A stretch of 64,000 nucleotides of DNA from assembly GCF_004010195.1 (NCBI RefSeq), contig NC_057752.1, positions 4,468,590 to 4,532,589 on the forward strand. Direction: 5' to 3'. The notes beneath the pieces were generated by a model. It ran no database searches and was not told the DNA's origin. It worked only from the letters and a program-made list of their open reading frames with translations. Position 1 is the stretch's first letter; every line of letters begins with the position of its first letter. The translations under genes and the position numbers were made by a program. The stretch is from Chiloscyllium plagiosum (taxonomy: Eukaryota). This document shows positions 24,554 through 61,849 of this stretch, in pieces.

Positions 24554-24979
24554 CAAAGATCTGGATATTCATTACTCCATGAACTTGCTGGTTGATTTGC
24601 ACATTAACAGCATTACCCATCCCTTTGACTGTCCAACTGTGATTCTGTCTGTCTGTCTGTCTCTCTCTGGCCTCCAGATCTCCACCTATTGTTTACTCCT
24701 CCCCCATCTTCCCAATCTTTTCCCAGCTACAGTTAGTTCTGAAGAAATGTTACTAGACCTGAAATATTAACTCTGCTTTCTCTCCACAGATGCTGCCAGA
24801 CCTGCTGAGCTTTTCCAGCAATTTGTTTATTACAAGTAACCATTTGGTACAAACAATACATTTCCTGAGGCACTTAAGTGTGTGGGCAAATATTAAGTGA
24901 TCAGTTTAGAACAAAGGAACATATTTTCAGTAGACTGTCATGATTCAAATGATTTGAGGTAAGGTAGAGTGTAAGATCT

Positions 24980-37359: not shown

Positions 37360-38250
37360 GAGAGTGGTAGGAGTCTGGAATGCACTGTTAGAGGTGGTGG
37401 TGGAGGCAGATAGGGCATTTAAGAAACTTTTACATCGGCACATGAATATGCAAGGAATGGAGGGATATGGACCAAGGGCAGGCAGAGGGAATTAGTTTAA
37501 TTTGGCATTGTGTTCGGTGCAACATCATTGGCTGTACTGTTCTAGGTTCTATATTATATGGACGAGTTAGACCGAAGGGTCTGTTTCTATGCTGTATAAC
37601 TCTATGACTCTAATATCCTTGAGCTCAGATTCAGCTTTCAGCCTTGAACTTATTAGTTTTTCTTTTATGTTTCTCCTCCATGCTCTCCCTGCATTGATAT
37701 TAACTCTTCCTCCTTGCAGTCTCCGACACATCCCCCTCCTCCACCCACTCCTCCTCCACCCCCCCTCCTTTCATCATCATCATCATCATCAATAACCCTT
37801 GCCCATCAGTACATATCTATCCCTTTCCATTGTTAAAGTAAAGGTAACTGAATTGTGGTCACTATCACTAAAGTGCTCACCTACCTCCAAATCTAACACC
37901 TGGCCTGGTTCATTACCCAATACCAATCCAATGTGGCTTTGTCTCTTGTTGGCCTATCTACATACTATGTCAGGAAATCCTTCTGCACACATTGGACAAA
38001 AACTGACCCATCTAAAGTACTCCCTTTCACTTACTATTCATCTGACACATTTGATCACCAGCAAAGACTTATTATTCAGCCTATGGACACTCCACTCACA
38101 CCATTTCTATGATTGTTTGGTTTCTCTGCCTATAAATTCTGTGTCTGTGTGCTTTCCTTCACTTCACCTGATGAAGGGGCAGCGCTTTGGAAGCTTGTGA
38201 TTTCAAATGAACCTGTTGGACTATAACCTGGTGTCGTGTGCCTTCTGACC

Positions 38251-38320
38251 TTGGACTGGTCTGGGAGTGCCCTTCAGTATTGTCCAGACAGAGTGTGCCA
38301 CATCGTCCTAGTGTGCTGAC
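38251..38320 (+). pseudogene. PIF/Harbinger transposase fossil, 3' continuation
   Basis: LDWSGSALQYCPDRVCHIVLVC is the segment expected right after the LK.RFRC motif. Confidence 0.75.
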
Positions 38321-39917: not shown

Positions 39918-40105
39918 GGTAGACAAGCAGGAGGCTGGAGGAACACAGCAAGCCAGGCAACACCAGGAGGTGGAGAAGACAAGATTTCGGGTATATCTGA
40001 AATGTTGACTTCTCCACCTCCTGATGCTACCTGGATTGCTGTGTTCCTCCAGCCTCCTGCTTGTCTACTTTGGAGTCCAGCATCTGCAGCTTTTCTGTCT
40101 TTAAC
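39918..40105. mobile_element. PLE-derived fold-back mini-element (family D)
   Basis: Inverted arms GTAGACAAGCAGGAGGCTGGAGGAACACAGC / GCTGTGTTCCTCCAGCCTCCTGCTTGTCTAC. CAGCATCTGCAG tail as in family A. Flanking aa[g/a]gtgtgctt repeat. Confidence 0.75.
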
Positions 40106-40159
40106 CAAAGTGTGCTTTTGAACAGTAATTATGTCTGTTGGTGTGGAGCGGTAATTAAA

Positions 40160-42055: not shown

Positions 42056-43584
42056 TGGCCAACAGAAAAGGCTTGCATTTCGCTGGTAACTTTCAAAATC
42101 TCAGGACTTCCAAGAGCATTTTACAGCCAATTAAGTACTTTTGATGTGTTATTACCTTAGAAAATCTGGCAGCCATTTTGTTTACAGCAAGGTTCCACAA
42201 TCAGCATTAGGACAAATGAACAAATCAACCTTCTTGATTTGCTCCCCAAGCACCTTCTTTAAACATTAATTCCTGAAACACCGATGTACAATGTCTGCAG
42301 TTAGTGTCAACTATAAGGTGCACTGCAGCAACTTGACAACGCTCCTTTGGCAGCACCTTCCAAGCAAACAACCTCACCCATCTAGAAGGACAAGGGCAAC
42401 AGGTACATGGGAACACCACTGCATATAAGTTCCCCTCCAAACCATACACCATCTTGACTTGAAAATATATTGCCCTTCCTTCGCTGGCACTGGGTCAAAA
42501 TCCTGGAATTTGTTAACAGTACAGTGAGTGCGCCATCACCTTCTTCAGCGATAGCCACATCCCATGAAAGAATTTAAAAAAAGAGACCAGATCATCTGTT
42601 TTCGTGCAAGTGGCAAATCTATCTCCCTTCTGTTTAAAAAGTGGGATTAACTAATTTAAATGAGTTGATTGATGCCTTGTTGTGATGGTTTAGAGGGGAA
42701 TTGGACACAAACAACCCTACAATAGCAGATATTTGAGCTGATTTGACACATCTCCATTAGGTGGCAGTAGAAGATAGTATGTTGCACTCAGATTCGCCTC
42801 ATTTAGGAATTACAGTACTCACATGGGAGAGTTCATGTTAGGCTGAAATAATGGGGAGCATCTGACAGCGTTGAATCCATTCAGATTAATTTCTCTTCTT
42901 CACCCATATTACAAAGGTGATGAACCATTTAAAATAAACAGGAAGATAATTTCGAGGATGCTGACATTTGACTAATTACATGTCAGCAAATCTATAGATT
43001 CTGGCGTTTGTTTTCATCAGTGTGTGCTTTATTAGCTGGTTTGTTGCTCTTTAATAATTAAACCCTCGACAGCTGGTTCTCAAACTCAATGCTTTATTCT
43101 GTAAACTAGTCATTAAAATTTCTCAAAGGTAGAAACAGCTGCTTCAGTTTACACACTGTTGATGGACTTGACACCTGACTTGGCTGTGCTTAACGCTGAC
43201 AATAGGGGCCTGAGCCAGAGAGTACTCTGTCGGCCTCACCTTCATCATTACAACATTCACAAAACAAGTTAATGCAAGGAACTGATAGCATTATGAAGAT
43301 TCACATAAATCGACAGCAATATTAAATTACAATTACATAATAAGCAGAGAATGCTGGAAACACTCAGCAGGTTGTGGCAGTATCTATGTGGAGAAACAGG
43401 GTCAATGTTTCACTTCAATCACCCAGAACTGAACAATGTTAGAGATGAACTGCTTGTAAGCAAATACAGAGGCCTGGGTAAAAGACAGGGAAAGAACACA
43501 TTTTACTTTTCCTCTGATCATTTGTTTTCTTCAAGATCAGTCCAATGTGGCCTGATGTATTTAGTGTCTGACAAGTAATTCGGT

Positions 43585-44655
43585 TACAGAAGCAGAAGTT
43601 TCTGGAAAAGCTCAGCAGGCCTGATAGCATCTGTGAAGAGAAATCAGAGTTAATGTCTCGGGTCCGGTGACCCTTCCTTAGGACTGATGGGAACTCGGAA
43701 AATGTTGGTTTATATGCAGAAGATAGGGGGTAAGGAGTAATTGATATGTAGGGATGGAGCCCAAAGAGAGAGAAGGACAGTTGGACAGACAAAGCAGTGG
43801 ATAAAGATCTGGCTGAGAGGACGAATAGCTGTTAATGGAGACAGTTAGTGGTTAACAATAGGCCATGTGTAATGGCAGACTATGTGATAACAAGGCTGGT
43901 GTGTGGGGAGAGGGCTAGGACATAGGGGAGTTCAGGCCCTAAAATTATTGAACTCAGTATTGAGTCCCGAGGATTACGGGGTCCCCAAGCGGACAATGAG
44001 GTGTTATTCTTCCAGTTTACACTGAGCTTCACTGGAACACTGCAGGAAGCCTGAGACAGAGATGTTGACCAGGGAACAGAGTGGTGCGTTAAAGTGACAG
44101 GCAACTGGAGGCTCAGGGTCTATTTTGCGGACACAATGTAGATGTTCTGCAAAGCCATCACTCAATCTATGCTTCATTTCCCCAACGTAGAGAAGACCAC
44201 ATTGTGAGCAGCGAATGCAGTAGATGAGATTGAGGAAAGTGCAGGTAAAGTGCTGCTTTACCTAGAAGGTAGGTTTCAGCCCTTGGATACTGAGGAGGGA
44301 GGAGGTAAATGGGCCGGTGTTACACCTTCGGCGATTGCAGGGGATGGTGTTGTGGGACCGTAGGGTGGGGTTTGGGAGTGGAGTAAGAGTGGACTGGGGC
44401 CTCCCTGAGGGAGCAGTCCCTGTGGAATGGGGACAAAGGAGGGGAGAGGACTCTATATCTGGTGATGGCACCTTGCTGGGGGTGGTGGAAATGGCAGCTG
44501 ATGATCTTCTGGAGGTTTCGTTCTGAAGAAGGGTCACTCAACCCGAAACATTAACTCTGATTTCTCTCCCCAGATGCTGCCCAGACTTGCTGAGCTTTTC
44601 CAGCAATTTCTATTTTTGTCTCTGATTTACAGCATCTGCATTTCTTTTGGTTTTT
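43585..44655 (-). mobile_element. Penelope-like element (family C): decayed GIY-YIG with an inverted pseudo-LTR
   Basis: Minus strand PCNRRRCNT...FTCTFLNLIYCIRCSQCGLLYVGEMKHRL...EH. The terminus at about 43590-43685 recurs inverted at 44522-44655 and carries CTGAAGAAGGGTCACTCAACCCGAAAC. Confidence 0.87.
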
Positions 44656-45344
44656 AGTCAAGGGTTTGAGCCTCAGTTTAGAGACTCAAGAAGCATCCAG
44701 ACTGACATTAACAGTGTGCTACTGAAGGAGTGCTGCACTGTGAGAGATGCTATCTTTTGATGGGAGGAGACATAGTCAGCACTTCAACAGAAGTACCGTA
44801 CTGGCTATAAAGCACTCTCGGCTCACTCTGAGGTTGTGAAATGTACAATAGGAACGTAAATCTTATGCTCCTCTGATATGGAACTGAGGCCTATATTCCT
44901 CAGTGCTGAGCACCCTACTGCTGACCATGGCCTGTTTTTTGGGGGAGAGAGTAATACTCTGCTTCCCTTGGGGTTTGGGAATGGGCACAATCAGCCACTA
45001 TTTCTGTTTTTGCAACTTGCACTTCTTGTTGACAGTGCATATACCAATGCTGCCCACCCCGGCTAATGAAATGGTCAGCATACTGGTAAGGTACAGGAGG
45101 GTATATGAAACCCATGGAACTGAACTTCAGCAAATTGAAGAAAAAAAAGGGAAAAAAAACTAACTGCTTGTATTACTTTGCCAATTTGTTTAATAGATTA
45201 ATAATGCACTGTTCAGTGACTCATAAACTTGTCAGTGTGCTGACTAGTGCAAGATAGGATATGATTAGGCAAAAGCCCTCCTTCTTGTTATTCTTCCCTC
45301 TTTATATTTTATCAATGATTGTGCACATTCCAAGCGCTCCAGTA

Positions 45345-45465
45345 AAGATTTGGAGATGTCGGTGTTGGACTGGGGTGGACAAAGTTAAAGAGCACTGCGA
45401 AAGCTAGTGTGCTTCCAATTAAACGTGTTGGACTATAACCTGGTGTTGTGTGACTTTTAACTTTA
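45345..45465. mobile_element. PLE mini-element family B (short fold-back)
   Basis: GATTTGGAGATG.CGGTGTTGGACTGGGG end joined to GAAAGCTAGTGTGCTTCC...GTGTGACTTTTAAC. Confidence 0.8.
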
Positions 45466-45702
45466 TTCAATAAAGATGTTTGTGTGTCTAGACCAACCTT
45501 GCTGAATCTCCTATTCAGTGCCCTGAGTTGATGCATCCTCTAATATCCATTGAACTGACATCATTTCAGTGCCCCTTTGCAGCCCTGCAAAGCTCTTTCC
45601 AGGTTCATCAACCGATGCAGGAACCATGAGTCAAAGTTGCACATAGTGTACTATATTGGATGAAATTTTTTCGCTTTCTATTTTAACAAGGGGGTTCATT
45701 TC

Positions 45703-46314
45703 ATCATAGAGTCATAGAGAAGTACAGCACGGAAACAGACCCTTCAGTCCAACTTGTCCATGCTGACCAGATATCCCAACCCAATCTAGTTCCATTTGCC
45801 AGCACTTGGCCCATATCCTTCTAAACCCTTCCTGTTCACATGCCATATACGCACCACCCTCTGTGTGAAAAGGTTGCCCCTTAGGTCTCTTTTATATCTT
45901 TCCCCTCTCACCCTAAACCTATGCCCTCCAGTCTGGACTCCCACACACCAGGGAAAAGACCTTGTCTTTTACTCTAACCATGCCTGTCATGATTTTGTAA
46001 ACCTCTATAAGGTCACCCCTCAGCCTCCAACGCTCCAGGGAAAGCAGTCCTAGCCTATTCAGCCTCTCCCTATAGCTCAAATTCTCCAACCCTGGCAACA
46101 TCCTTGTAAATCTTTTCTGAACCCTTTCAAGTTTCACAACATCCTTCCGAGATAGGAGGGAGCCCAGAATTGCACACAATATTCCAAAAATGACCTAACC
46201 AATGTCCTGTACAGCCACAACGTGACCTCCCAACTCCTGTACTCAATGTTCTGACCAATAAAGGAAAGCATACTAATCACCTTCTTCACTATCCTATCTA
46301 CCTGCGACTCCACT
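45703..46314 (-). mobile_element. CR1/HER1 LINE 3' fragment
   Basis: LYRTLVRSFLEYCVQFW and KLERVQKRFTRMLPGL. Confidence 0.92.
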
Positions 46315-48929
46315 TTTATTTTAAATCTATCCAAGTCTTTGGTTAAAAAGTAGATTAGCAAACAGCAATCCCATGTGCATTCCTGATGTGCAAGCTGAGT
46401 ATCATTGGGCTTTTTATCCAGGAAGGGCATCACAGTGTCAGGCGCAGGAATGATTAAAGTGCTCAGGTTCTCAAACAGGGACAGAACCCGAAACATTCCA
46501 TATTACAGTAACACACAAGACTTCCCAAACTTGGAACTGGAGCAGCTATGAAAGGCATATTAACTCAAAACCCCATCTGCCCTCTCAGGTGGATGTGGAA
46601 GATCCCACAGCACAATATGAGAAATGCAACATAAATGTTAGTTATTGTTGGTTTTGCAGAATAATTGGCCTTACAAGCCAGGGACATGAAAAAGATCCTG
46701 GAGAAAGGAACACCACTTGATGATAAAATCAGGCTTGACCATGACATCCCCTGTGGTGGAATTGCGTGGTAAGCTTCAGATTTCCACATATTATTTTAAC
46801 GCCAATCTTAATTCTTTTTACTTTAAGTAGGTGAATGCTGGGATTGAAATAATTCCAATTTGAAAATCTAGGTTTCTCTTTTTAGCTTTCATTGGACTTG
46901 AAAAGTCCATTTGTACTGGCAAAGTTGGGCAATTGATGCAAGGGGGTGGGGGCAGAGGTTGCTATTTATGATCTCAAAGAAGCTGTGGTCAATGGACTTC
47001 TTTGAGTTCAGCAAACAATTGGGATCCACTTCGATTCTGTCAGACTGCTTTGCGCACTAATACCTTGGCTACACTGCACCTTTCCTCCATGTCGAATGTT
47101 GTCCCGGTTTGATGATCATCTGCATCCTTGAACTCATAAGAACCTCAGGGAAGTCACTGATGGCAGTGTGAGAACAAGAAGTTCTGAGCTTTCAAAGCTG
47201 TTCCAGAAGCTTGCTTGGGATGCTTGGTGTGATGTTAGAACAGGAACATTTTCAGCTTCTGTCACTGTTTGTGCTGGTTCTCAGCCATGTGTGTGGCACA
47301 CAGCTGTTGACCCGAACACTCCTGGAGTCAAAAAAGAAAAAGTAAAATTGTTATTCTCAATCCTGTCAGTTACTGGATCCAATGGATGCCCTCCTTGATC
47401 AAACAATCCACTGACATTCAGCTTGGATGTCACAAATGACCACATGAATAGCTCCAGATATCCTGCTGTGCCTCAATTGGCTTCAGCCCTTGTTGACACC
47501 AGAAGGAATGGCAGGAAGGGAAGAACATCAGAGAATTGGAGAGCGTAAGGCTTTCTATGGAGTGATGATATAAAGGCCGTCACGAGCCATCAGTCTCTGT
47601 GAATTACACATAACTTACTTACAGTATGTTCAGATGTGATGTGAAACAACCTTTATGACCAGATTCTGAAATGAATGAGTCTCACACAGGCTGCATTCAA
47701 GTAGAGGACTAAAATGGGACACTACCACATTAATTCTGCTTACTTGTATACCTCTGTAAAGGACTGTGTCAGCGAAGGTGTCGGCAGCAGTTGTCATCCT
47801 TAATACTGGTAAATCTATAACAGCCAGGGCACAGTGTCAGTCATATTTAACAAACGGAAGTTGGACTTGTGCTGTAATAAATGCCTCCATTCATAAAACT
47901 GGCTGTAAGTAATGAGTTAGCAAGTTATCCGGCGGGTCAGATACTCTCTATGTGAGAGTATTAATCTAATCTAAATGCCAACAACATCCCTGCCCATTTA
48001 TATACACTATTAAAATCAGACAGTGGGATGCAAGCCCCAATATATACAAGAGAATATTGGATATCTGAGAGCTCTTTTCAGGCAGTGATTGGATAGTAAT
48101 TTATGGTTAGAATGAGACTAAAGTTTTGGTAATTAAATTACTGTCTTGAAACTAATACTGTATGATATATTGTTTTAAAATAATTTACATTAACTCAATG
48201 CCATTATTTTACTGTGGGTCCACCTGCTAGATCCCTGACAGGTGATTAGAAAATAATTTGCAGCTCGATACTGGAAACCTCTACACACAAGATGTGAACT
48301 TGTTGAGTTCAGAGCTTCACGAACGTGGGGTTCAATGAGGAATTGATGTGTGGTTCCTGAAGGATTTTGCATCCATTACAAACTAATCTCCAATGTATAC
48401 ATTGTACAAAGTTAATTGTCCCTTATTTCCTAATCCTTCAAGATCAGTTGCTCCCTGCGTTTCAGGCTCAAGTCCAGCTATTGCATCACTGGTGGGGAGG
48501 GGAGCCTAAACTAGCTGGGAGCATATCCAGCAAAGATCAGAAGGAGTGCTCAATGTGTGTTCCCACACTGGGATTGTAAAATTGCAATAGTCAGCCTTTT
48601 GTTTTGTCACTGTGAAGATATTTTGGCTTCATCTTGATTCCAAAGATGGATTCTAACTTGGCTATGAAATTATCTAAAAAAGTAAGAACATATGCATTTT
48701 GATAGTGCCTTTCACAAACTCATGATGCCCCAAAGCACTTTACAGCCAATGAAGGATTTCTGAATTGTAATGTAGGATCTAAAACCAAGTTAGATCTGGA
48801 ATTAAACCATCAAGTGCTGAAGGTACGCAGTAGGTCTAGTAACATCGGTGGAGAGAAAAGTATAGTTAATGTTGAGCCCAATAAGTATGACTCAAGTTCT
48901 GAAGAAGTTCTGTGAACTTAAAACTTTAA

Positions 48930-49760
48930 CTCCATAAGCCCATAGGATGTAGGAGCAGAAGTAGGCCATTTAGCCCATCGAGTCTGCTGTGCTGTTCATG
49001 GCAGTTGACAATCCTCAATTTCACTTTCCTGCCTTTTCTCCCACAACCTTTGATTCCCTCACTGATTAAAAATCCATCTATCTTGGCCGTTAATGTATTT
49101 AATGACCTAATCTCTACAGCCCTTTGCGGTGAATAATTCCACAAATTAACTACTGTCTGAGAGAAAACAAAATCCTCCTCATCTTTGTCTTCAATGGTGA
49201 CCTCTTATTCTGAGATTATGCCCTCTGCTCTGAGACTCTCGCATAAGGGGAAACAATTTTTCTGCATCTAACCTGTCACATCCATAAAAAAAATGTAAAT
49301 TTCAATAACATCGCCTCTCATTCTCCTAAACACCAATATGTACAGGCCTGAACTCTACTCATAAGGTAGTGCCTGGGATCAGCCCAGTGAACCTTCTCTG
49401 GACTGCCACCAATGTCAGTACAGCATTCCTCAGACAAGGGGCCCAAAACTGCTCACAGTAATCCAGCGGTGTTCTGATTAATGCTTTGTATAGTTTGAGC
49501 AAAACCTCCACCCTTTTATACTCCATTCCCCTTTGAGATAAAAGCCAACGTTCCATTTGTCTTCCCTATTACCTGTTGAACTTGTATGCATTTGGACTCC
49601 CAAATCCCATTATGCTGCAGCTTTCTGCAGTCTTCCCCAATTCCCTGTCTTCTTTGGTGAGCCAATCTCTATCTGTACTACCCCCCACACCATGGACTCT
49701 TATTAAGTAGCCTAATATGTGATATTTTATCAAGGGCTTTCTGAATGTCCAAATATGTTA
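48930..49760 (-). mobile_element. Older CR1 LINE 3' fragment
   Basis: LYKALIRTPLDYCEQFWAP...VQRRFT. Confidence 0.8.
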
Positions 49761-50078
49761 CATCCACTGTTTCTTTCTCCACCAAAGCTGCCATACTTAT
49801 TGAATTTCTCGACTTGTTTTTATTTCAGATTCCTAGTATCTGCTTAATTTTGACTTTATTAAAGTTAGGTCTGTGATGTGCCAATGACTACATTGGTTTC
49901 ACAAGCACTACAGTTCTACTCAAACTGGGTGTGCACTTTCTAATCGCCAATTTACCCATTGAAATACCCTTTCTGCTCTACAATTACATTGTAACTTAGC
50001 CAGGATTCAGGCATTTCTCCATGTTCCCTGACTGCAGACAGTTGCAAAACTGGGAGCATAACTCAGTTCTGATTACTC

Positions 50079-50259
50079 TCCAACAGGTTTAATTGGAAGC
50101 ACACTAGCTTTCGGAGCGCTCCTTCATCAAGTGATCACCCGATGAAAGGGCATCGCTCCGAAAGCTAGTGTGCTTCCAATTAAACCTGTTGGACTATAAC
50201 CTGGTGTTGTGTGATTTTGAACTTTGTACACCCCAGTCCAACACCGGCATCTCCAAATC
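50079..50259. mobile_element. PLE mini-element family B, fold-back with two opposed, decayed hammerhead cores
   Basis: Inverted arms meet at about 50133. Flanks ctgattactctc and ctgatgattctc are a degenerate TSD. Confidence 0.82.
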
Positions 50260-51545
50260 CTGATGATTCTCAGCAGGTATTGGTCCCATCCAGCTATAGC
50301 TACACTTTCCATCTAAAAGTAAACCACTGTAAAGGCGTTGCTCTTAATGTGATTCACTCAGCAGTCCTGTGATTTGCAATCCTGCTGGTATATATAATTT
50401 TATCTGAATGCGTTTGTGGTTTTCAGAACAGGATGTTATGCAAATATATCTGCGACTTGCCAAGGGCTATCAGAACAACAGCGATCAGCATGTTGTTTAA
50501 AGGGGATGAAAGGCAACACCTGCTGAATTCGCATGTTGCCAAGGTGCCTGTTTGAGCAGAGTCCTCGGCGATAACATGCACTAACACTACACCCCTGAAT
50601 ACGCTTTGATCCTTGTCTTGCTGAATTTACAAAATGCAAAGTATGAAGTCACACCTTCTTTTAGAAGCCATACGTATGTCGAGAATCAGGATTTCTCACA
50701 CAAACGGAACCACCTGAACATCTTCTCAGCCTTCAATGTAAATCAATTTATCTACCCTTAAGATGCCAAGTTCAAGTAGGTAATAGTCAGCAAAAGTTTC
50801 GTTCGATTGAAGTGTGTGGGTTAGTTGAAAAAGCCTAAAAAAAACGCTGACAGTCATCTTCCCGTCCAGAGTGATGTGGCCTGCCGATGACAGTAATGTT
50901 AACACTTACAGCGCAAAGTGTAAACCCTCATGCATCAATAACATTCTCCAGTATATCCACTCATGGCCGGCAGGGGGACTTCTTATACTGGCTTCCCAGA
51001 GATTAGAAACACGCTAATGAGATGGCAGAAACAAAATGACCTCCAGTTTTCACAGTGTTGATGTGGAAAACAATAATGGTGCCTGCTCTACTGTTGACTG
51101 CTCCTTTAACCAGCTTTATTCCAAGCTAAGCATAAACAATCTCGCATTCAACTCTGGGAAAGACCACTGTCTGCAGTCTTTCTGCCAAAGTACAAGGCTC
51201 CATTCAATTATCAAACCCTCTCATTGCCTCAAAATAAATTGTATCCTGTATGAGTAGACAATGCCTTTGGTTGCAACTGCAGGGAATGTCCAATTCCAGT
51301 GTTTGCTTTCCTTTGTATGCAAAGACTATACAAAACTGTTTTAGTACCTTGTGTATGTATCTAAGGATTTTTTATGAATAAAGTATATTTTTGCAATTAA
51401 AACATTTGTTGCTGTCTGCTATATCTCTGAGCTCATGTGAAGGACATTCAGGATTGACATTTTAATTTTCTGACTGGTTTAACTAATCTCTATAGTCAGA
51501 ATGTTCCCCTGCACATTCAGTTTTCGGAGCTGCCAGATCCCACAA

Positions 51546-51609
51546 TTTCCTGCTTTCATGTCCTAATTATATTGTTGCAACAATATAATTAGGACATGAA
51601 AGCAGGAAA
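51546..51609. repeat. Perfect 64-bp palindrome with no spacer
   Basis: tttcctgctttcatgtcctaattatattgttg|caacaatataattaggacatgaaagcaggaaa. Confidence 0.97.
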
Positions 51610-51823
51610 CAGTAGTCTGCCTTCTGCCAAAGGCATTAACTGGTGCTAGGGTAAATTTCATCTGTTAGCTGGGCTAAGGGAGGGCTATCTGGTACTTCGA
51701 TCACATCAGGGGCATCACGACTGAACCTAGTTCTGCCATCAGTCAGCTGGAGGAGGTGAGCTGGAACAAAAAACGTATAGAAGGCTGTATCGTGAAGCAG
51801 CCAACAATGCCTTTCAGGCTTTG

Positions 51824-52025
51824 ATTTGGAGATGCCGGTGTTGGACTGGGGTGTACAAAGTTAAAAATCGTACAACACCAGGTTATAGTCCAACAGGTTT
51901 AATTGGAAGTACACTAGCTTTCGGAGTAACTCTTCTTCATCAGGTGAAGGAGCGTCGCTCCGAAAGCTAGTGTGCTTCCAATTAAGCCTGTTGGACTATA
52001 ACCTGGTGTTGTGTGATTTTTAACT
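51824..52025. mobile_element. PLE mini-element family B, fold-back
   Basis: Perfect 12-bp TSD tttcaggctttg at 51812-51823 and 52026-52037. The arms meet within the hammerhead region at about 51945. Confidence 0.88.
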
Positions 52026-52858
52026 TTTCAGGCTTTGTGCCTGGTGTATATTTGCAACTTGTGATCTGAGATAGCACAGGTCACAGTTCATTGTACACCC
52101 TATTTGCAAAGAGATACTGGAAGAGTGAGTCAACAGAGTTGACTCCACAAGCTGACACCTTCATTCCCCGCTTGCCTGGATGGGTGTGGCTCAAACAACA
52201 CTCACAAAGCTTGATACCATCCAGGACAAAGCAGCCCCAGTTTTTTGGCACCCAATCCATCATCACTGACACACAGTGGCAGGAGTAAATACCAAGATGT
52301 ATTGCAGTAACTCGCTGAGGCACCTTTGGCAGCACCTTCCAAATCTGTGACCTCTACCACCTAGAGGGACAAGGGCAGCAGGTACATAGGAACACCACCC
52401 CCTACAAATTCCCCTCTAAACCAAACACCATCCTGACTTGGAAATACATTAGCCATTCCTTCCATTAGCCAGGTTCAAAATCCTGGAATTCCCTTCCTAA
52501 CAGCACTGTGGTTTTACCCGCACCACATATGGACTGCAGTGGTTTATGAAGGCAGCTCACCACCATTTTCTTAAAGGCAGGTAGTGATGGGCAACAAATT
52601 CTGGCCCAGCCAGGGACACACATATCCAATGGAATAACATATAGAAATGATCTGGCTGAACCATCAGGAATAGAGTCAGTAAAGCATTAGACCCTTTCAA
52701 ACTGATCAGACTTAGCTACAGTATGGAGTGCTGAGATCTCAGTGGATTATGGTGGTGGAGATTACAGAGATAGGAAGGGGACAAAGCCATGAAGGGATTT
52801 GGAGGTGGAGAATTTAAAAACTTCGGTGTTACTGGACCAAGTGTCAATATATATTGGA

Positions 52859-53143
52859 GGGGCAGCATGGTGGCTCAGTGGTTAGCACTGCTGCCTTGGG
52901 ACCCAGGTTCGATTCCAGCCTCGGGTAACTGTCTGTGTGGACTTTGCACGTTCTCCTGTGTCTGTGTGGGTTTCCTCTGGGTGCTCCTGTTTCCTCCCAC
53001 AGTCTAAAGATATGCAGGTTAGGAAGATTGGCCATGCTAAATTGCCCGTAGTGTCCAGGGATGTGCAGTATAGGTGGATTAACCATGGGAAATGCAGAGT
53101 TACAGGGATGGTGTGGATCTGGTGGGATGCTCTTTTGAAAGTC
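52859..53143 (+). mobile_element. HE1-type V-SINE
   Basis: tRNA head and V-domain. Confidence 0.88.
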
Positions 53144-54321
53144 ACGGAAGGGTAGAGATAAGAGGCCATAAAATGGTGCAAAGACCAAGTGATGTGAGGC
53201 AACATCTTTAAGGTGATCTCACAGTGTCTGCCATACATTTGGTGCTTCACTCACGAACAAACTGCTGCACACCCTGCAGCATAACTAGGGCATTCAGTTT
53301 TGAGGATAAGTAGTAATTTAATGCGAGTAAAGTGACTAAGAATTGAAAAGTATTCATTTACAACCTGATAGCAATTAGATGGGGGATTATTGGATGTCAA
53401 TCAAATATGGTTTGAACCTGACAATCACATTCCTCAGGTGACATTCCGTGGTTTAAAAGATGTCTGAAGCTGATTGTTCCACAGGAATTTTGACCAACAG
53501 TTGTAATCAATCCTGTTTGTAACCAGATACTTATATAACTTAGAGAAAAAAAAGGTTGAAGAACATAGCATGACTCCTCTTGATGTTCCACATATTTCTC
53601 ATTCTTTTAAACTGAAGCCTCACTAGTTTAATAGTGCTATCACCTTGACTGCTGTGCAGAGATGAGGTCAAAGAACCTTTCTTTATCTATTTTGCTGTTA
53701 GCGCTGAAAGACCTGTAATATTTTCCGTCATTGGTAGCCCCAACCCCGCACCCCTGATGCTCTGAAGGAGGTGACTTCTGCTGGGTTCAGGTTCACAGAT
53801 ACTAAAAGCATCCTGATACCTAAATCACTTGCATGGTCATTCCTCATATCTGATCTCAGACAATGTTAACAGGCACCACAGACAAGCCCAATCTTCTCCT
53901 CACCCAGTAGCTACATGTATGCACTTTCCAGCAGAGCACAGTGAATTTGTTCGGAGAAAAACTAATTGATTTAAAATTTCTCATACCTTGTTTTCAAATC
54001 TTCCATGGCCCTTTCTTTCACTATTTATGCAACCTTTTGCAGTTCTACATTCTCTGTATTTCTCCAATTCTGACCTCGAAAGCATCCACAATTTTAATCG
54101 CTCCACCACTAGTGTCTGTGCTGCTGCCTTTAAACTCTGGAATACCCTCCCTAAACTTCTGCCTTTTATTTTCTCCTTTAAGTCCTTCCTTAAAACTTAT
54201 CTCAGTGACAATTCTTTTTGGTCATCTGTCCTAATATCTCCATATATATCAAACGTAATACTCCCATGAAGCAACTTGGGACTTTTATATAGTGTCCTTA
54301 ACTTATTAAAATGCTGGTTAT

Positions 54322-54908
54322 AGAATCATAGAGATATACAGCTTTGATCCAACTCATCCATGCTGAGCAGAGATCCCAAATAAATCGAGTTCCATTTGCC
54401 AGCACTTGGCCCATATCCCTCTAAACCCTTCCTATTCATATACCCATGCAGATGCCTTTTAAATGCTTTAATTGTACCAGCCTCCACCACATCCTCTGGG
54501 AGTTCATTCCATACATGCACTACCCTCTGCGTGAAAAAAATGCCCCTTAGGTCCCTTTTAAATCTTTCCCCTCTCATCTTAACCCTATGCCCTCCAGTTT
54601 TGCACTCCCACACCCGTGGGAAAAGACCTTGTCGATTCCTGCTGAAGGGCTTTTGCCTGAAACGTCGATTCTTCTGCTCCTCAGCTGCTACCCGAGCTGC
54701 TGTCCGTTTCCAGCACCACACTCTTGAGTCTGATCGCCAGCATCTGCAATCCTCACTTTCTCCACCTTGTCTATTTACCCTATCCATGCCCCTCATGATT
54801 TCATAAACCTCTATAAGGTCACCCCTCAGCCTTCGACGCTCCAGGGAAAACAGTTCCAGCCTATTCAGCCTCTCCCTATAGCTCAAACCCTGGCAACATC
54901 CTTGTAAA
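54322..54908 (-). mobile_element. CR1/HER1 3' fragment interrupted by a family A mini-element (about 54636-54763)
   Basis: CR1 peptide is broken by the insert. Repeat accttgtc[g/t]att at 54626-54637 and 54764-54775. Confidence 0.9.
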
Positions 54909-56000
54909 CTAGTTGTTAATTTTCTCCTCTCATGGGCAATGTATAGCTAATGAAGTGAACAGACCACTCTTTCTCTATCTTCTATGATTCTTTGGGGCAT
55001 TTTTTCTTATAGCTTTAAGTGTGAAAAGCTAATTTATATACAACACTTCCAGAAATTCTAGTGCTATTCACTTTAGTACCTTGGCCACAGTCTTTTAGAA
55101 GGATAGCATGGATGAGGGTATTCAGTTCTGTGTAAAGTTCTGATGAACTTTCACTGGCCCAAAAGGTTCATATTCAATCTCTCTCCACAGATCGTGCCTG
55201 ACCTGCTGAGTGTTTCTAGCATTTTCTTACTTCGAACATCTGGAGCATTTTGCTCTTGGTCAAAGTAGAATATTAATTGTGTGGTTCATTATTTCGCTTC
55301 CAGCATGCAGGTTTCCACTTCTAATGACCTGGTCTTTTTCTGAAAATAGTGTTTTTTGTGACCAGCATATAAATTGAAAACAATGGCGAAAGAGCCTGAT
55401 TTGTAACATGTTTGTGACGAAGGCCAGAATATTTCGTGATTCCATACATCTTATTGTGTTGTTTAATAATCGCAGTAGAATGCCCTGGTGAAAGGTTAGA
55501 GTGGTTGGAGAGTTTAAGAACACATATTCAAAAAAATCAAAGTTTCAGCATTTAAGATGATTCACCTGTTAATACATGTTGGACAATGCATTTGTAAACA
55601 TCATTGTTCGTAATGCTATTTTATGGAAGTGCTATTACAGGTATTTGTTTGCGGCCATATAATTTATGCTGGTACACTACTTCATTTGTAATTCCTTTGG
55701 GGCAGTAGGGTGGGGACCAGGGAAAGCACCCCACCGAGACCACAGTTCTCAATCGGACGAATTCAAACGCAAGAGCTTCCATTGCTTCAGCAACCAATAC
55801 CTTCATTCAGATGCCTCCAACTGTTTGATTGATGCCTCATTCATTTTCTTGTTCATCCCGGTGAACTTATGTGCCCATGATTTTGGGAGCCTTTGCCAAA
55901 CCTGAGATAACCAATGAGCATTGACCTACACCTTGGGAGTTGCCAAGCTATAGCTTGCATGTGGCTCTTTTACACAAAAGATAGGGCTGTCAAAACTAAA

Positions 56001-56217
56001 TAGGTTCTTCTGCTGTAGCGCGTTTTGTTAACGCGAATTCGCTATAATGCGATTGACGAATCGGGGCCACTGTTTCTAAAGCGCAAACTTTTTAAACATG
56101 TGTTGGCTGTAACGCAATTGCATCGCCAACACTTTAAGTGCTGATTCTAAAGGGCAATTTTTCTGTAATGCGGGGTTTCTGCAAGAATGCAGCCATTGCG
56201 TTGTAGAAGAACTACCA
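56001..56217. mobile_element. Tigger/MER6-like non-autonomous DNA element
   Basis: Imperfect inverted ends (GTTCTTCTGCTGTAGCGC ... GCGTTGTAGAAGAACTACC) and internal TAACGCG-type motifs. Confidence 0.5.
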
Positions 56218-56544
56218 CTATGGGTGCAACTCATCCTCAATCTCAACCACTGCAAAATGCCCTCCTCACAATTTACATAGGTACTAAGCAGGAAAGGTAT
56301 ATTAACACATTCTATTCAGGGAAATAGTGAGAGCTGCAGTAAGTTTTTATTGCAGCTGTTGAAATGTATTCCTGTGACATGACCACTGCAGTCAGTTATG
56401 GTACAGCACCGCCAGTCTGAACAGCCACAATAATTTTGATAATTAATTCCTGTGGGAATCACGGTCGTGAGTGGTAGGAGACGATTAAATAACTATGGAA
56501 AGATGGTGGTTTATTGGTAATGTTACTGGACTACTATTCCAGAA

Positions 56545-56707
56545 GAGAGAAAGTGAGGGCTGCAGATGCTGGAGATCAGAGCTGAAAATGTGTTGCTGGA
56601 AAAGCGCATGAGCCCTTCCTGAAGAAGGGCTCATGCCCGAAACGTTGATTCTCCTGTTCCTTGGATGCTGCCTGACCTGCTGCGCTTTTCCAGCAACACA
56701 TTTTCAG
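56545..56707. mobile_element. PLE mini-element family A inserted in a SINE
   Basis: TSD cta[c/g]tattccagaa at 56531-56544 and 56708-56721. Core CTGAAGAAGGGCTCATGCCCGAAACGTT. Confidence 0.87.
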
Positions 56708-57633
56708 CTAGTATTCCAGAAACTGAGACTCGTGTTTTAGGGACATGGGTTTGAATTCCACCATAGCAGATAGAGAAATTTGAATTCAGGTAAAAATCTG
56801 CAATTAAGCACTGGACTAACGGAGACCGTCTAACCACTCTCGATTGTCATAAAAGCCGTATGGTTCACTAATCTTCTTTAGGGAAGGAAATCTGCCATCC
56901 TTACCTGTTCTGGCCTACAGCCCCACCCAATGTGGTTGAAGCCTGAAAGTACTGTACAGCCAATGAAGTACTTTTAAAATGTAGTCATTGTTGTATTGTA
57001 GAATACACAGCAGTCAATTTGCACACAGTACAATCCCACAAACAGCAATGGGATAATGGCCAGATAATCTCATCTTGTGATTTGTATGAGCAAGTAATAT
57101 TCGCAAGGACACCAGAAAGAACACCCTTGCTTTTCTTCCCAATTGTATCAGGAAATCTTTTACTTTCGTTTGAGAGGGGAGACAGAACCTTGGGTTTAAC
57201 ATCTTACACAAAGCAAAATGCAACATGCCCTGAATACTGCATTAGATTGTTAACCGAGAAGTTTGTACTCAGGACTCTGGAATGGGACTTGAACCATAAA
57301 ATCAGGGGGCCATTGCTGTTGGTGGGAACTCACTGTGAGCAACTTGGTTGCTGTATTTCCGAAATGACAACAGTGACTACATTTCAAATGCACTTCACTG
57401 ATTGTAGAACATTTTGAGGGAGTCTTGTGGTTGTGCCTCTCAGAGGAGAACTGCCCTCTCTCTGCCTTGGTGGCTTCATTTTAACCTGAACAAGTATTAA
57501 CCTCAGAACAACAGCATCTTTAAATAACCTATAATAACTGCACTTTCCTACACTGGCTGGCAACAGATAAAGCGGGAGGAAATTAAAAGACCTTTGAATT
57601 TTTCAAGTGAAATTAAAAGACCTTTGAATTTTC

Positions 57634-57941
57634 GCACGGTGGCTCAGTGGTTAGCACTGCTGCCTCACATCGCCAGAGACCCGGGTTCAATTCCAGCCTC
57701 GGGTGACTGACTGTGTGGAGTTTGCACATTCTCCCCGTGTCTGCGTGGGTTTCTTCTGGGTGCTCCGGTTTCCTCCCACAGTCCAAAGATGTGCAGGTCA
57801 GGTAAATTGGACATGCTAAATTCCCTGCAGTGTTAGGTGGATTAGTCAGGTGTAAATATGGAGGGGGGGTTCTCTTTGGAGGGTTGGTGTGGACTGGTTG
57901 GGTCGAAGGGCCTGTTTCCACACTGCAGGGAATCTAATCTA
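57634..57941 (+). mobile_element. HE1-type V-SINE
   Basis: Head GCACGGTGGCTCAGTGGTTAGCACTG, V-domain, and tail ...CCACACTGCAGGGAATCTAATCT. Confidence 0.92.
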
Positions 57942-58243
57942 AATTCGCTTTTACAATTACCATTCATCTGGTTAAAAAGAAGCAAACCTCGATCATCCCA
58001 TTCTAATCCCTTTGCAATCAAATCAATCTCAAATGTTGGGAAGCCTTGCTTTAGAGATTTAAGGTTTTCAAAATAAAACTGTCAGTTTTGATTCAACTTT
58101 ACACATCAAGGGAATGATCATTTACAGTCTTTAATCCAGCTCAGCCATTCAACGCAGATTGTCAGGAGTAAATGCTCCAGGTATACACTTACAATTTTAC
58201 AATGGTTGCATTGTCTTCACCAAGGGTACGGACATCAGCAATA

Positions 58244-58425
58244 GGTGAAAGTGAGGACTGCAGATGCTGGAGATCTGACAGCAGGTCAGGCAGCATCCCA
58301 GGAGCAGGAGAATCGACGTTTCGGGCATAAGCCCTTCATCAGGAATGGCTTATGCCTGAAACGTCGATTCTCCTGCTCCTGGGATGCTGCCTGACCAGCT
58401 GTGCTTTTCCAGAACCACACTCTCG
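58244..58425. mobile_element. PLE mini-element family A, fold-back, with an intact hammerhead core on the minus strand at 58315-58342
   Basis: CTGATGA-AGGGCTTATGCCC-GAAA-CGTC. Degenerate 16-bp TSD at 58228-58243 and 58426-58441. Confidence 0.85.
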
Positions 58426-59431
58426 ACGTACATTAACAATACCCTATTTTTCTTTGGGGCTTGGTGCTAAAGTCCACTTCCACTCAAGCAAAGCCATCCC
58501 TGCTTGGTGGAGCCTCCTTCTGCCTTCTGCAGCAGGGCATGGGAGGGGAAAATGGGTCAGTAACACAGGCATCTGAGAATTTGTGTCCTCCCATCCTGCC
58601 ATTTACGTGTAGTCAGACCTAGCTTGGTTGATGATAAGAAGGACGCTCCCTGTTAAATCCTTCCTGTCCATCTGATTGCCTCTCTATGTTGCCCTCAAGG
58701 TGGCTGCAGTGGAAGTGACCATTGCCCACTTTCGCTGGACTATGCCTTTGCAAAGAAGGTCTGGGAAGAAAGAGATGCGGGGGTTTTGTCAAGGTTCATC
58801 CTGAGCAACTCTGTAATGCATGGGCTGTTGTCAGTGACACACACTGAGACATGTAATTGGAGGGCCGTCCAGAGGGGCAGCAGGAGGGTGTACTGGGGGT
58901 TGTGGATTTGCACAAGGAGTGCAAATGCTAAAATAACCCCTCTGAGACCCTCTTGTTTGGGAATGGACAATGTCTTATCTGTAACGGTTCTCGTCATCCA
59001 TTAAGAGCAGGCTACACAAGCTCAACTGTGTGGAAAAGGGATACACTTGGATCTGTTTATAATTTCGCAAAACCTTTCTCAGCTTTATCAATCAGCATCT
59101 CTCCCTCTTCTGTCATGAGGATAGCTTGAGCAATTGTCACAGATACTTTCAGCTCTTTGTAAATCTAGTATCATGTAGAAACATTTATCCAATGCTCAGA
59201 ACAGGTGCTGAAAGAAACCTAACAGGACTGGAATCTGCACCTGTAGTTTCGGTGCCTTTTCTGTGATGCCAAAACAATGCAGTTGAATTGAGCTAACCTT
59301 GAAATGGGTGTGTCAGTGTTTAAGTTTAAGCTTCAAGCTCACTGAGCTCAGTTTTTGCAAACACAAAGTTTCCAGACTCCAATATTATCTCTAGTCAATC
59401 AATGAAATTGGTGGTGTAATGGACACTGATG

Positions 59432-59790
59432 AAGGTTATGAGGGGCAAGGATAGGGTGAATAACCAAGGTCTTTACCCCAGGTTAGGGGAGTCCAAAACC
59501 AGAGGACATAGGTTTAGGGTGAGAGGAGAAAGATTTAAAAGGGACCTAAGGGGCAATTTTTCCATGCAGAGGGTGGTGCGTGTATGAAATGAGCTGCCAG
59601 AGGAAGTGGTGGAGGCTGGTACAATTACAACATTTAAAAGGCATCTGGATGGGTACATGAATAGGAAGGGTTTAGAGGGATATGGACCAAATGCTGGCAA
59701 CTGGGACGAGATTAGGTTGGGATATCTGGTCGGCATGGACAAGTTGGACCGAAGGGTCTGTGTCAGTGCTATACATCCCTAGACTCTATA
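59432..59790 (+). mobile_element. CR1/HER1 LINE 3' fragment
   Basis: Same 3' sequence as the other HER1-like copies. Confidence 0.9.
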
Positions 59791-60544
59791 AATCCAGCTG
59801 ACCGTTTTCAGTCATTTAGTTTGGCCCTTTTATTGTGCAGCAAATGGAGTACTTTGCCATTCTTGGCACTCAAGAGTACAGCACTTTGTCCATGGGTGCC
59901 CAGAATGATAAGGAATAACGTTTTCTTGCTGAGTGAGATCCTGGAGTTGGTGAGCTCATTGCCAATGATCGTTATCACTGTGCTGCCTGCCCACGGGCAC
60001 ATAGTTTGCCAACCTCAATTAATGTTGAACCATGAAAGAAAACAAGGAGAGAAGCCCATTGTCCCATTTGACCTGTTGAGTCCCACTTGCAAGAAGAGTG
60101 TGCTAACCCCATGAGTTTAGTAACTTAATGTAAGATAACATAGCATAATTCAAGACAAGGATCAAAGTTGAAAGAAATTGAAGAGCTGTGATCGAACACA
60201 TGGACAATAGTTTGGTTTCTTGGGCCCTTGACATCATCTGAAACTTCAGCCATGCCAACCCAGATCTCATCTCAGCAGGTATTTGAGTGTGTGGCAGCCT
60301 GCCCTCACTCTCATTTACCAACAGGAGCTTGAGACATTGAGGGATTAAACTTTGGCTGATCTTCCCAGCCATTGCCCAAAGTCAGAGGAGTTTAGGCCAA
60401 TTGCAGGACTACTGGTAAAGTTCCAATTGAGAGGACTAACACGATGCTGACTGGGAATAAAAGCGAGGATCTTTATGCTCAGTTACGTGTTAGGAGTGAT
60501 ATCTCATTTATGCAGTTGTACTCTTCACTATCTTGGAATATCAG

Positions 60545-61752
60545 AGTTAAAAATCACACAACACCAGGTTATAGTCCAACAGGTTTATTTGGAAGCACTA
60601 GCTTTCGGAGCGCTGCTCCTTCATCAGGTGATTGTGGAGAATAAGATTGTAAGACACAGAATTTATAGCAAAAGTTTACAGTGTGATGTAACTGAAATTA
60701 TATATTGAAAAAGACCTGGATTGTTTGTTAAGTCTCTCATCTGTTAGAATGACCATGTTGGTTTCAGTTCTTTCATATGGAAATCGCAAAACCTTTTTTA
60801 AAGTTACATTCTCAAGTGAACTTTAACAAGGATGTCCTGAGGCATGGCATGGTGTCATGTCGGCCCAGATAAGGTATTGAAGGTGTTAAATCCCTGTGAG
60901 GCTGTCTGCGCCGCAATGGTCAGACTGATTCTAATCTAAAAAACGGATTTACAGAATTTTACATGGATTCATGTAGTTTTTGAGCAAAGTAAAATGTAAT
61001 TCTGCAAGTACAAATTCATCCCACAAACTTATATGTGTATGTGTGCATGTGGGGGAGGGGGTGGTTATGAGTGTATGTGTGTGAGTGTAAAGGGGTTTAA
61101 GTCTGTGAGAGTGTGTGGTGCTGTGGGGTCACCCGTAGTGTGACATGAACCCAAGGTCCCGGTTAAGGTCATTCCCATGGGAACCGAACTTGGCTATCAG
61201 CCTCTGCTTGGCCACTTTGCGTTGTTGCCTGTCCCGAAGTCCACCTTGGAGGACGGTCACCCAAAGGTCCGAGGTCGAATGTCCCAGGCCGCTGAAGTGT
61301 TCTCCGATTGGGAGGGAACACTCCTGTCTGTTGACTGTTGTGCGGTGTCCATTCATTTGTTGCCGTAGCCTCTGTTTGGTCTCACCAATGTGCCATGCCT
61401 CAGGACATCCTTGCCTGCACCGTATGAGATAGATAACATTGGCTAAGTCACATGAGCACCTGCCACATACATGGTGGGAGGTGTCCCCACATGTAATGGC
61501 GGTATCCTTGTCGACATTCTGACATGTCTTGCAGCGCCTACCGTGATAGGGTTGTATGGAGTTGTCCTGAGAGCCGGGCAGTTTGCTACAAACAATGATC
61601 TGTTTGAGGTTTGGTGGCTGTTTAAAGGCGAGAGGTGGAGGTGTGGGGAAGGTCTTGGCGAGGTGCTCATCCTCATTGGTAATGTGTTGCAGGCTGCGAA
61701 GAACATGGGCGTAGTTTGTCAGCTTCTGGGAAGTACTGGACAATGAAATCAT
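60545..61752 (-). mobile_element. Penelope-like element (family B parent): GIY-YIG ORF remnant plus pseudo-LTR with hammerhead
   Basis: ORF 61129-61752 reads CKTC...NVIYLIRCRQGCPEAWHIGETKQRLRQQMNGH...LNRD. Hammerhead TCAC-CTGATGA-AGGAGCAGCGCTCC-GAAA-GCTA-GTG at 60631-60596. 12-bp TSD ttggaatatcag at 60533-60544 and 61753-61764. Confidence 0.92.
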
Positions 61753-61849
61753 TTGGAATATCAGCTGTAGGTTATTTGGTCATACTCTTGCCTCTCAACT
61801 TGAGCTCTGCTTCTAGTGTTATGTCTTATTCCAGAGCTTGCACACTAAT

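Follow-up and report, generated by a model that had tools for sequence, protein, structure and literature searches.

Truncated head-to-head insertions of an endonuclease-bearing Penelope-like element in a 64-kb window of the shark Chiloscyllium plagiosum

Family B Stubs and Their Target Sites

The window considered here, a 64-kb stretch of Chiloscyllium plagiosum contig NC_057752.1, is vertebrate DNA with many remnants of long interspersed nuclear elements (LINEs). It contains several short fold-back copies, called family B, and a longer copy at 60545-61752, all ending like a Penelope-like element (PLE). An earlier note had described the short copies as a mini-element family accompanied by its GIY-YIG-bearing parent. 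The reading favored here, with a probability of about 0.7, is that they are ordinary insertions of an endonuclease-bearing (EN+) shark PLE of Neptune-type layout, mostly cut down to the pseudo-long terminal repeat (pLTR) end through nicking, priming inside the RNA at two sites, run-off, and joining. These sites are named T1, the end at ...TTTTAACT, and T2, the tip of the tail, at a distance of 36 nt. The family B stubs, with their target-site duplications (TSDs) and a related terminus bearing an initiator (Inr) motif, are as follows.

45347..45463, no strand: fold-back stub; tail and about 9 nt (minus), then stem II-to-T1 arm (plus)
45338-45349 / 45466-45477: TSD of stub 45347, 12-mer with 2 mismatches
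50079..50259, no strand: fold-back stub around the palindrome GTGATCAC; one arm short and inverted, the other full, its tail at 50224-50259
50069-50080 / 50260-50271: TSD of stub 50079, 12-mer with 2 mismatches
51823..52025, no strand: fold-back stub centred within the hammerhead core; minus arm with the tail at 51823-51858, plus arm ending at T1
51812-51823 / 52026-52037: TSD of stub 51823, exact 12-mer
38127..38255, plus: diverged sister-subfamily terminus; TATAAA at 38131, Inr TCACTTC (A 38161), decayed hammerhead

A BLASTN search of the whole window with 60501-61800 returned 50134-50226, 50079-50135, 51856-51947, 51937-52025, 45391-45462, and 38130-38240, at 82–90% identity (E 1e-30 to 6e-15). 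The three stubs and 38130-38240 resemble the final 70–115 nt of the 60545-61752 element, and the common terminus announced in the earlier note is thus borne out. The segment at 38160-38250, listed there as a further tail, is indeed a homologous terminus, but of a diverged sister in which neither the 36-nt tail nor a TSD was found. The extra tail, first put at about 35 nt, measures 36 nt and lies on one arm per stub: 45347-45382 (minus), 51823-51858 (minus), and 50224-50259 (plus), the last being a case that had escaped the earlier note. The tail-less arm ends at ...TTTTAACT in 45347, 51823, and 60545, as had been proposed for the second arm and for the long copy. The claim of 12-bp TSDs stands in exact form for 51823 and 60545, whereas those of 45347 and 50079 carry two mismatches each. 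Among 296 random position pairs scored as a null, none exceeded 9: the exact TSDs outscore all of them, and the decayed ones score at least 6, like 13 of the 296. The latter are weak alone, yet they stand at the expected positions.

The centre of the fold-back is different in each of the three stubs, and arm lengths differ too. Such differences between centres indicate separate truncated insertions rather than descent from a single fold-back master, and the term "mini-element family" is not supported. The arms overlap by 55–85 nt in 51823 and 50079, near non-overlap being seen only in 45347 and 60545, and the junction centres show either an inverted microhomology of 2–4 nt or a palindrome (GTGATCAC in 50079). 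These centres are what would be expected if a single T2-primed cDNA stalled near the hammerhead and copied itself through the palindrome, the endonuclease then resolving the product at T1. Self-priming is favored in PMC3846280 and endonuclease-mediated resolution in PMC8557442; the two arms share local variants, by eye, in three of the four informative insertions of the neighboring family A, and T2 ends exceed T1 ends among the rows listed in the read data described below. Yet the T1 arm greatly exceeds the T2 arm in length, with about 80 vs 45 nt in 45347 and 1.2 kb vs 5–7 nt in 60545, and cannot have been copied from the latter. A 3-nt indel in stem II separates the two arms of 50079, and T1 is a start site of the reverse transcriptase (RT) in vitro for the anole element (PMC11167929). 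This single-priming scheme thus looks unlikely. As to whether both arms come from one template, the partner arm was lowest in mismatch share in only one of five family A insertions, a comparison confounded by ragged inner ends.

The Long Copy and Its Classification

The long copy comprises the following features, including a fragment of an open reading frame (ORF).

60545..61752, minus: 5′-truncated PLE copy ending at T1; endonuclease half of the ORF, 3′ untranslated region (UTR), pLTR terminus
60533..60544, plus: TSD copy (TTGGAATATCAG), exact 12-mer
61753..61764, plus: TSD copy (TTGGAATATCAG), exact 12-mer
61746..61752, minus: ATGATTT, inverted tail tip of 5–7 nt; a shared TT joins the tip to the ORF; loose-end consensus
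61129..61747, minus: broken C-terminal GIY-YIG ORF fragment; frameshift near 61707-61715, CX2-5CxxC linker, CCHH motif, YIG tyrosine replaced by His

The best relatives of the ORF at 61129-61779 (minus) are found in sharks, with 63–72% identity, several having an RT domain upstream. When a 643-aa shark relative was compared to the window by tblastn, only residues 448–642 were matched, and no RT domain was found in the window by this search. The first codons of the copy (FIVQYFPEADKL) are out of frame with the remainder, with the frameshift near 61707-61715. The YIG site reads WHIG, against WYIG in four of the five aligned relatives and WYVG in the fifth, and the linker PCHxxxCKTC, conserved in all five, starts with PYH in the window copy, a Tyr replacing its first Cys. 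A 2-nt gap after CUA and an AATAAA instead of ATTAAA further distinguish this copy from all stub arms. The combination of an intact RT-EN ORF and an upstream pLTR, which defines autonomy, is absent. Being 5′-truncated, devoid of RT, frameshifted, and of a variant differing from the stubs, 60545-61752 is not their parent: it is a dead sibling rather than a source element.

The tip of the tail often continues as ...AAATCAT in the loose-end consensus of all four sequencing runs, and ORF homology begins at 61747. The long copy can thus be read as a TSD, a 5–7 nt inverted tail tip, a 1.2-kb T1 arm, and a TSD, and the few bases previously noticed as resembling the inverted tail (ATGATTT) do match the tail tip, at 61752-61746. 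Besides, an exact 23-bp inverted match links 61391-61413 in the coding region to 60827-60849 in the 3′ UTR, possibly as a templated insertion.

EN+ PLEs carry RT together with a GIY-YIG domain at the C-terminus in one ORF. This arrangement is seen here through relatives, the window copy being the EN half only: the full relatives P0001 and P0007 (69 and 66% identical) have RVT_1 upstream of the same EN. The nearest clusters of the protein atlas are GIY-YIG at 0.97; with the window ORF fragment itself, Pfam gave nothing significant and PDB only three matches, at E 1.3–1.6. The CCHH motif, whose two Cys lie between GIY and YIG, is present (VIYLIRCRQGCPEAWHIG..NGH..GEH in the alignment), this motif and the CX2-5CxxC linker being taken as defined in PMC8557442. 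The terminus has the attributes of a pLTR, namely a minimal hammerhead, an inverted arrangement, a one-sided 30–40 nt tail, and a TSD. From these motifs, the family putatively sides with Neptune/Nematis, to the exclusion of Penelope/Poseidon, Neptune and Nematis not being separated by the linker. The stubs and the long copy represent a new member of a family of elements in which inverted pLTR, one-sided tail, and TSD have already been described.

Outer Ends and Tail Pairing

Reads from three public DNA runs and one poly(A) RNA run were mapped onto the tail arm 51760-51946. The mapped contigs, 43,000–56,000 per DNA run, show one end each and give no information on TSDs. Those leaving at 51822-51823, i.e., at T2, amount to 2774/10137, 2214/8548, and 2655/10501 of the partly mapped contigs, where a uniform spread would give 0.27% per place, and the flanks at T2 are long, unrelated, and AT-rich. 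Since about a quarter of the partly mapped contigs break at the tail tip, the outer ends are non-random. T1 appears as a looser cluster at 51856-51860, with at least 543, 228, and 284 contigs in the three runs, and its total is probably below that of T2. The random junctions that the earlier note had considered are therefore not what the DNA reads display: ends are fixed, sharply at T2 and less sharply at T1. Rare joints, of 1–4 contigs each, in which a T1 end is fused tail-to-tail to an inverted T2 end, were also seen; fold-back units in tandem, or a copy with an insertion in its own end, would look like this.

In each of the 10 two-armed PLE insertions of the window (three of family B, five of A, one of C, and one of D), exactly one arm carries the tail, an outcome of probability 0.5^10 = 0.001 under independent even choice per arm. 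TSDs of 11–14 bp were found in 12 of the 14 insertions examined, with 12 bp in family B and 11–14 bp in the neighbor families.

The very high copy number deduced from the mapped contigs, together with two variants common to all three stubs and absent from the long copy, would suit a separate non-autonomous family, resembling miniature inverted-repeat transposable elements or retrozymes and amplified as a preformed palindrome. Non-autonomous PLE derivatives are known (PMC8557442; bioRxiv 10.64898/2026.07.22.740005). Against this stand the centres and arm lengths, different in every copy, the absence of any tandem monomer array in the window, and the asymmetry of the ends, unlike terminal inverted repeats; such an origin looks highly improbable. 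A short non-coding RNA from solo pLTRs could nevertheless serve as template, which would merge this explanation with the favored one of ordinary PLE insertions.

The tail is predicted to pair with the pLTR. The stem UGUUGGACU / AGUCCAACA is part of the minimum free energy (MFE) structure in all four family B folds (z -3.06, -1.23, -1.13, -0.26), and family A has an analogous stem, GAUGCUG/CAGCAUC (z of three arms -1.97, -0.78, +0.75). The resulting hairpin (e.g., 51823-51905, minus), which encloses T1, is a lead as a candidate RT-binding structure, with z values weak except for one. A 23-mer had no match in metagenome_contigs, and a viral_contigs scan gave none either; the 59 matches of an 18-mer of the tail in metagenome_contigs were rejected as due to chance, the longest alignment to the arm being 25 nt.

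Inner Ends and Predicted Promoter

The inner ends of 21 arms were tabulated relative to C3 of the hammerhead, the family A reference beginning at -10. This set does not include the 5–7 nt tip, the two family C arms, or the long arm of either 60545 or 43585, and two of the family A arms contain internal deletions. The values for the T1 arms of 51823 (-4) and 58243 (-3) correspond to gapped extensions into the opposite arm, +4 and +9 being read by eye. In 17 of the 21 arms, T1- and T2-started alike, the inner end falls within -10 to +15 of C3; of the others, two lie upstream (-41, -108) and two are short (+61, +70). Because both kinds of arms stop in the same zone despite starts 36 nt apart, the stop appears to be a feature of the template. 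A promoter-like motif lies close by.

60662..60667, minus: TATAAA, placed 40 nt upstream of C3 of the hammerhead; an Inr-like TCCACA has its A at 60635 (TATA+32)

A TATA box followed by an Inr-like motif at +29 to +32 is present in three of the four copies that reach far enough upstream (60667/60635, 38131/38161, and 43714/43685), the frequency of TATAWA in the window being 0.0008 per base. An RNA polymerase II start is accordingly predicted 4–8 nt before the hammerhead core, where the arms tend to stop. For family D, a start at C3-4 is predicted, and C3-3 is where the insertion's own inverted arm ends. With this coincidence between predicted RNA start and arm ends, the stubs look like run-off cDNAs. 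RT stalling at an RNA structure is a possible alternative cause of the inner ends.

Hammerhead

60596..60630, minus: minimal hammerhead of type I; stem II preceded by an extra A, AGCU palindrome, CUA, predicted cut after 60599

Read from 60630 to 60596 on the minus strand, its parts are CAC / CUGAUGA-A / GGAGC..GCUCC / GAAA-GCUA, with the predicted cut after A60599, / GUG. All the parts named in the earlier note, and the predicted cut site, are thus in place. The "clean fold" is not: the MFE fold of 60585-60640 differs from a hammerhead (z -0.88), none of the 17 Rfam matches at E up to 1 is a hammerhead (those to miRNA families merely reflect long hairpins), and the AGCU self-duplex is worth only -2.5 kcal/mol. 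The parts listed are those of the 60545 copy; in the stub arms, the hammerhead is decayed or cut. Minimal hammerheads of this sort are reported to be inactive as monomers and weak as dimers (PMC4209133); by analogy, 60596-60630 would probably be active only as a dimer.

Hammerhead cleavage as the origin of the inner ends could be ruled out, since the arms that reach the hammerhead retain GAAAGCUA and sequence 5′ of it. No inner end is found at the predicted cut, the inner-end zone lying 5′ of it. In the RNA run, depth is without a step at 51914/51915 and read ends do not accumulate at the ribozyme site, although a cleaved 3′ piece would be too short for sequencing.

Polyadenylation and Priming Sites

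60584..60589, minus: AATAAA poly(A) signal; the RNA poly(A) junctions correspond to 60572 and 60569

In the RNA run, poly(T) precedes 51883 in 406 and 51886 in 347 of the 2161 mapped reads. On the sense strand of the element, these junctions lie 15 and 12 nt after the hexamer, a spacing judged by the usual rule for poly(A) sites; a GU-rich tract follows them, and the genomic sequence has no run of A. They are 24–27 nt upstream of T1 and 60–63 nt upstream of T2. The loose ends of RNA reads at T2 (340 reads) are made of mixed flank sequence and not of a tail, which is what read-through of insertions by host transcripts would give. These positions suggest that T1 and T2 lie inside the RNA instead of at its polyadenylated end.

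The earlier note had proposed that both target strands are primed on two defined RNA 3′ ends. Priming of both strands at two fixed points, one per side, agrees with the 10 two-armed insertions and with PMC11167929. The two RNA 3′ ends do not, the only defined 3′ ends seen in the one RNA run being poly(A) sites upstream of T1 and the published starts being internal. Two RNA species ending at T1 and T2, each priming one target strand, would account for the two fixed ends in the reads. Read ends on both sites are reported from RNA-seq in PMC11167929, and a poly(A) library would miss non-polyadenylated RNAs. This explanation is nonetheless very unlikely in view of the position of the poly(A) junctions and the mixed flanks at T2, and since a longer template 3′ end left product size unchanged in vitro (PMC11167929). 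A processed mRNA would be devoid of the priming sites at its 3′ end, and long copies thus need either read-through RNA or a template jump.

Other Elements in the Window

The window contains further PLE copies and unrelated repeats.

43585-44660, sense minus: second long PLE copy, family D; short inverted tail arm, inner end C3-3; decayed GIY-YIG 43950-44369
43714, sense minus: family D promoter-like motifs, TATAAA and Inr TCAGTCC, A 43685
24644-24824: family D-related terminus, extending 108 nt upstream of the core, no TATA box
3469, 19004, 30745, 33803, 54639, 56545, 58243: family A PLE stubs, five fold-backs and two one-armed
39919-40106: family C fold-back stub centred in stem II, one-sided tail, TSD of 11 bp (1 mismatch)

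The family A stubs have TSDs of about 12–14 bp and a loop-less ACGU hammerhead with a GUC/GUU triplet; no TSD was found for the 43585-44660 copy. A perfect 64-bp palindrome with an AT-rich centre, unlike the PLE ends seen, occupies 51546-51609. Decayed LINE ORF remnants lie at 25299-27755, 35366-36427, and 40025-40900; from their translations, examined by eye, we take them to be L1/Tx1-like and CR1-like.

Proposed Mechanism

The ends, TSDs, polarity, and poly(A) position described above are observed in the window or in the read data. In the mechanism that they suggest, the GIY-YIG domain would nick both target strands with a stagger of about 12 bp, as the TSDs imply. RT would then start inside the RNA, at T2 on one target strand and often at T1 on the other, the pairing of one site per strand being deduced from the 10 insertions seen here. 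Both cDNAs would usually stop close to the hammerhead core, between about 10 nt upstream and 15 nt downstream of it; the most likely cause is that the RNA starts there, at the TATA/Inr promoter of the pLTR. Their 3′ ends would be joined head to head through 2–4 nt of microhomology, leaving a fold-back of 120–200 bp between TSDs. Where the T1-primed strand extends into the body, the product would be a long copy whose inverted tail arm is short (60545, 43585). Neither end would be set by hammerhead cleavage. This scheme parallels in vitro work on a purified anole PLE protein (PMC11167929), which cuts and extends both target strands, with RT starting at two template-internal sites and the tail being the sequence between them. 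Ribozyme mutants insert normally according to the same report, which makes cleavage dispensable.

Several observations weigh against this scheme. In the read data, T1 is far more diffuse than T2, so that many insertions probably lack a T1 arm; two copies in the window, 3469 and 54639, both of family A, are one-armed, and the tail-less arm of 50079 ends at ...CTGTTGGA, about 30 nt before T1. TSDs were not found for 38160 and 43585 (2/14), and 3 of the 12 found are weak. The start-site choice in vitro is reported as equal on both strands (PMC11167929), leaving the pairing unexplained. As regards the promoter, the fourth upstream-reaching copy, 24644, has no TATA box. No RNA 5′ end was seen, the stretch used for mapping reaching only to 51946 and the predicted start being near 51950, and in Drosophila virilis Penelope a TATA-less promoter lies about 300 nt upstream of the 34-bp repeat (PMC2377424). 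The DNA and RNA runs come from coded organisms with about half of the sampled words, and the species may differ. Finally, the poly(A) reads, all from one sample, may be host transcripts ending in pLTR copies.

The position of the poly(A) site ahead of T1 and T2, combined with the TATA/Inr layout, also suggests a retrovirus-like partition of the pLTR: a U3 with the TATA box, an R of about 60 nt running from the start via the hammerhead to the poly(A) site, and a U5 that ends in the two priming sites. The mRNA would then hold T1 and T2 at its 5′ end only, and a target-primed cDNA would run off the cap after 85–125 nt, like strong-stop DNA. Tens of thousands of stubs would be such run-off products captured on both strands. 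A jump of the cDNA to the R copy at the polyadenylated 3′ end would give long copies and regenerate the pLTR, a process for which PMC2377424 states that no obvious mechanism is known. This partition is held as a doubtful extension, since read-through transcription of tandem copies explains long copies with no jump. No paper proposing a U3-R-U5, strong-stop, or template-jump pLTR was found among titles and abstract openings, most of the subscription literature lying outside this search.

The structure of these copies is ordinary for PLEs, and their value lies in their forming a very large natural collection of integration products, in which a single assembly could show whether the two start sites are always divided between the target strands and whether copies end at the RNA start. 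Newly added here are the TATA/Inr layout and a poly(A) site that precedes both priming sites, the latter constraining PLE models. Through the pLTR, poly(A) signals, TATA boxes, and long hairpins are moreover spread across a shark genome.

Comparison with Known Systems

Classical L1 twin priming yields non-overlapping arms from one RNA, with a 3′ arm ending in poly(A). The shark copies share with it the priming of cDNA on two strands, the inversion flanked by a TSD, and the microhomology at the junction. In contrast, they have no poly(A) tail, their second site is fixed, and their arms often overlap by 55–85 nt. The term "twin-priming-like" used in the earlier note is thus adequate for the two-strand priming and for the near non-overlap in 45347 and 60545; it does not fit the overlapping arms of 51823 and 50079, nor the lack of poly(A) in every copy.

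Closer parallels are found among PLEs. An inverted pLTR, a one-sided tail, and a TSD form the typical Penelope structure (PMC3846280, PMC8557442, PMC2377424), with for instance a 31-bp tail on one pLTR and a TSD of 8–10 bp (PMC3846280) or a 30–40 bp tail often at one end only (PMC8557442). The EN+ PLEs of these papers have the same head-to-head pLTRs, one-end tail of 30–40 nt, and short TSD, as well as the palindrome or microhomology at the inversion junction and the heavy 5′ truncation. Differences lie in the TSDs, of 11–14 bp in the shark vs 8–10 bp in Adineta (PMC3846280), in the extent of truncation, most shark copies consisting of the last 85–125 nt only, and in the promoter, which looks of the TATA/Inr type directly before the hammerhead, whereas that of D. 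virilis is TATA-less (PMC2377424).

The minimal hammerheads of metazoan PLE pLTRs (PMC4209133) show the same core with an extra base between A9 and G10.1, the G10.1-C11.1 pair, the palindromic 15.2-16.2, and no loop 3; they likewise occur as solo copies and close pairs on opposite strands. Compared to the Schistosoma consensus, the shark helices II (5 bp) and I (3 bp) are shorter, and the triplet is CUA. Non-LTR retrozymes (bioRxiv 10.64898/2026.07.22.740005) are also non-coding, hammerhead-bearing, and pLTR-derived. They form head-to-tail tandem arrays of hammerhead units, whereas the copies of the window are solo or dispersed head-to-head pairs with TSDs.

The element PAc, a Poseidon of Anolis carolinensis (PMC11167929), offers the same two internal starts bounding the tail, cutting and extension of both strands, AT-rich targets, and no need for hammerhead cleavage. 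The shark element differs by its CX2-5CxxC linker, absent from Penelope/Poseidon, and by the pairing of T1 with T2 on opposite strands, PAc showing no strand preference in vitro.

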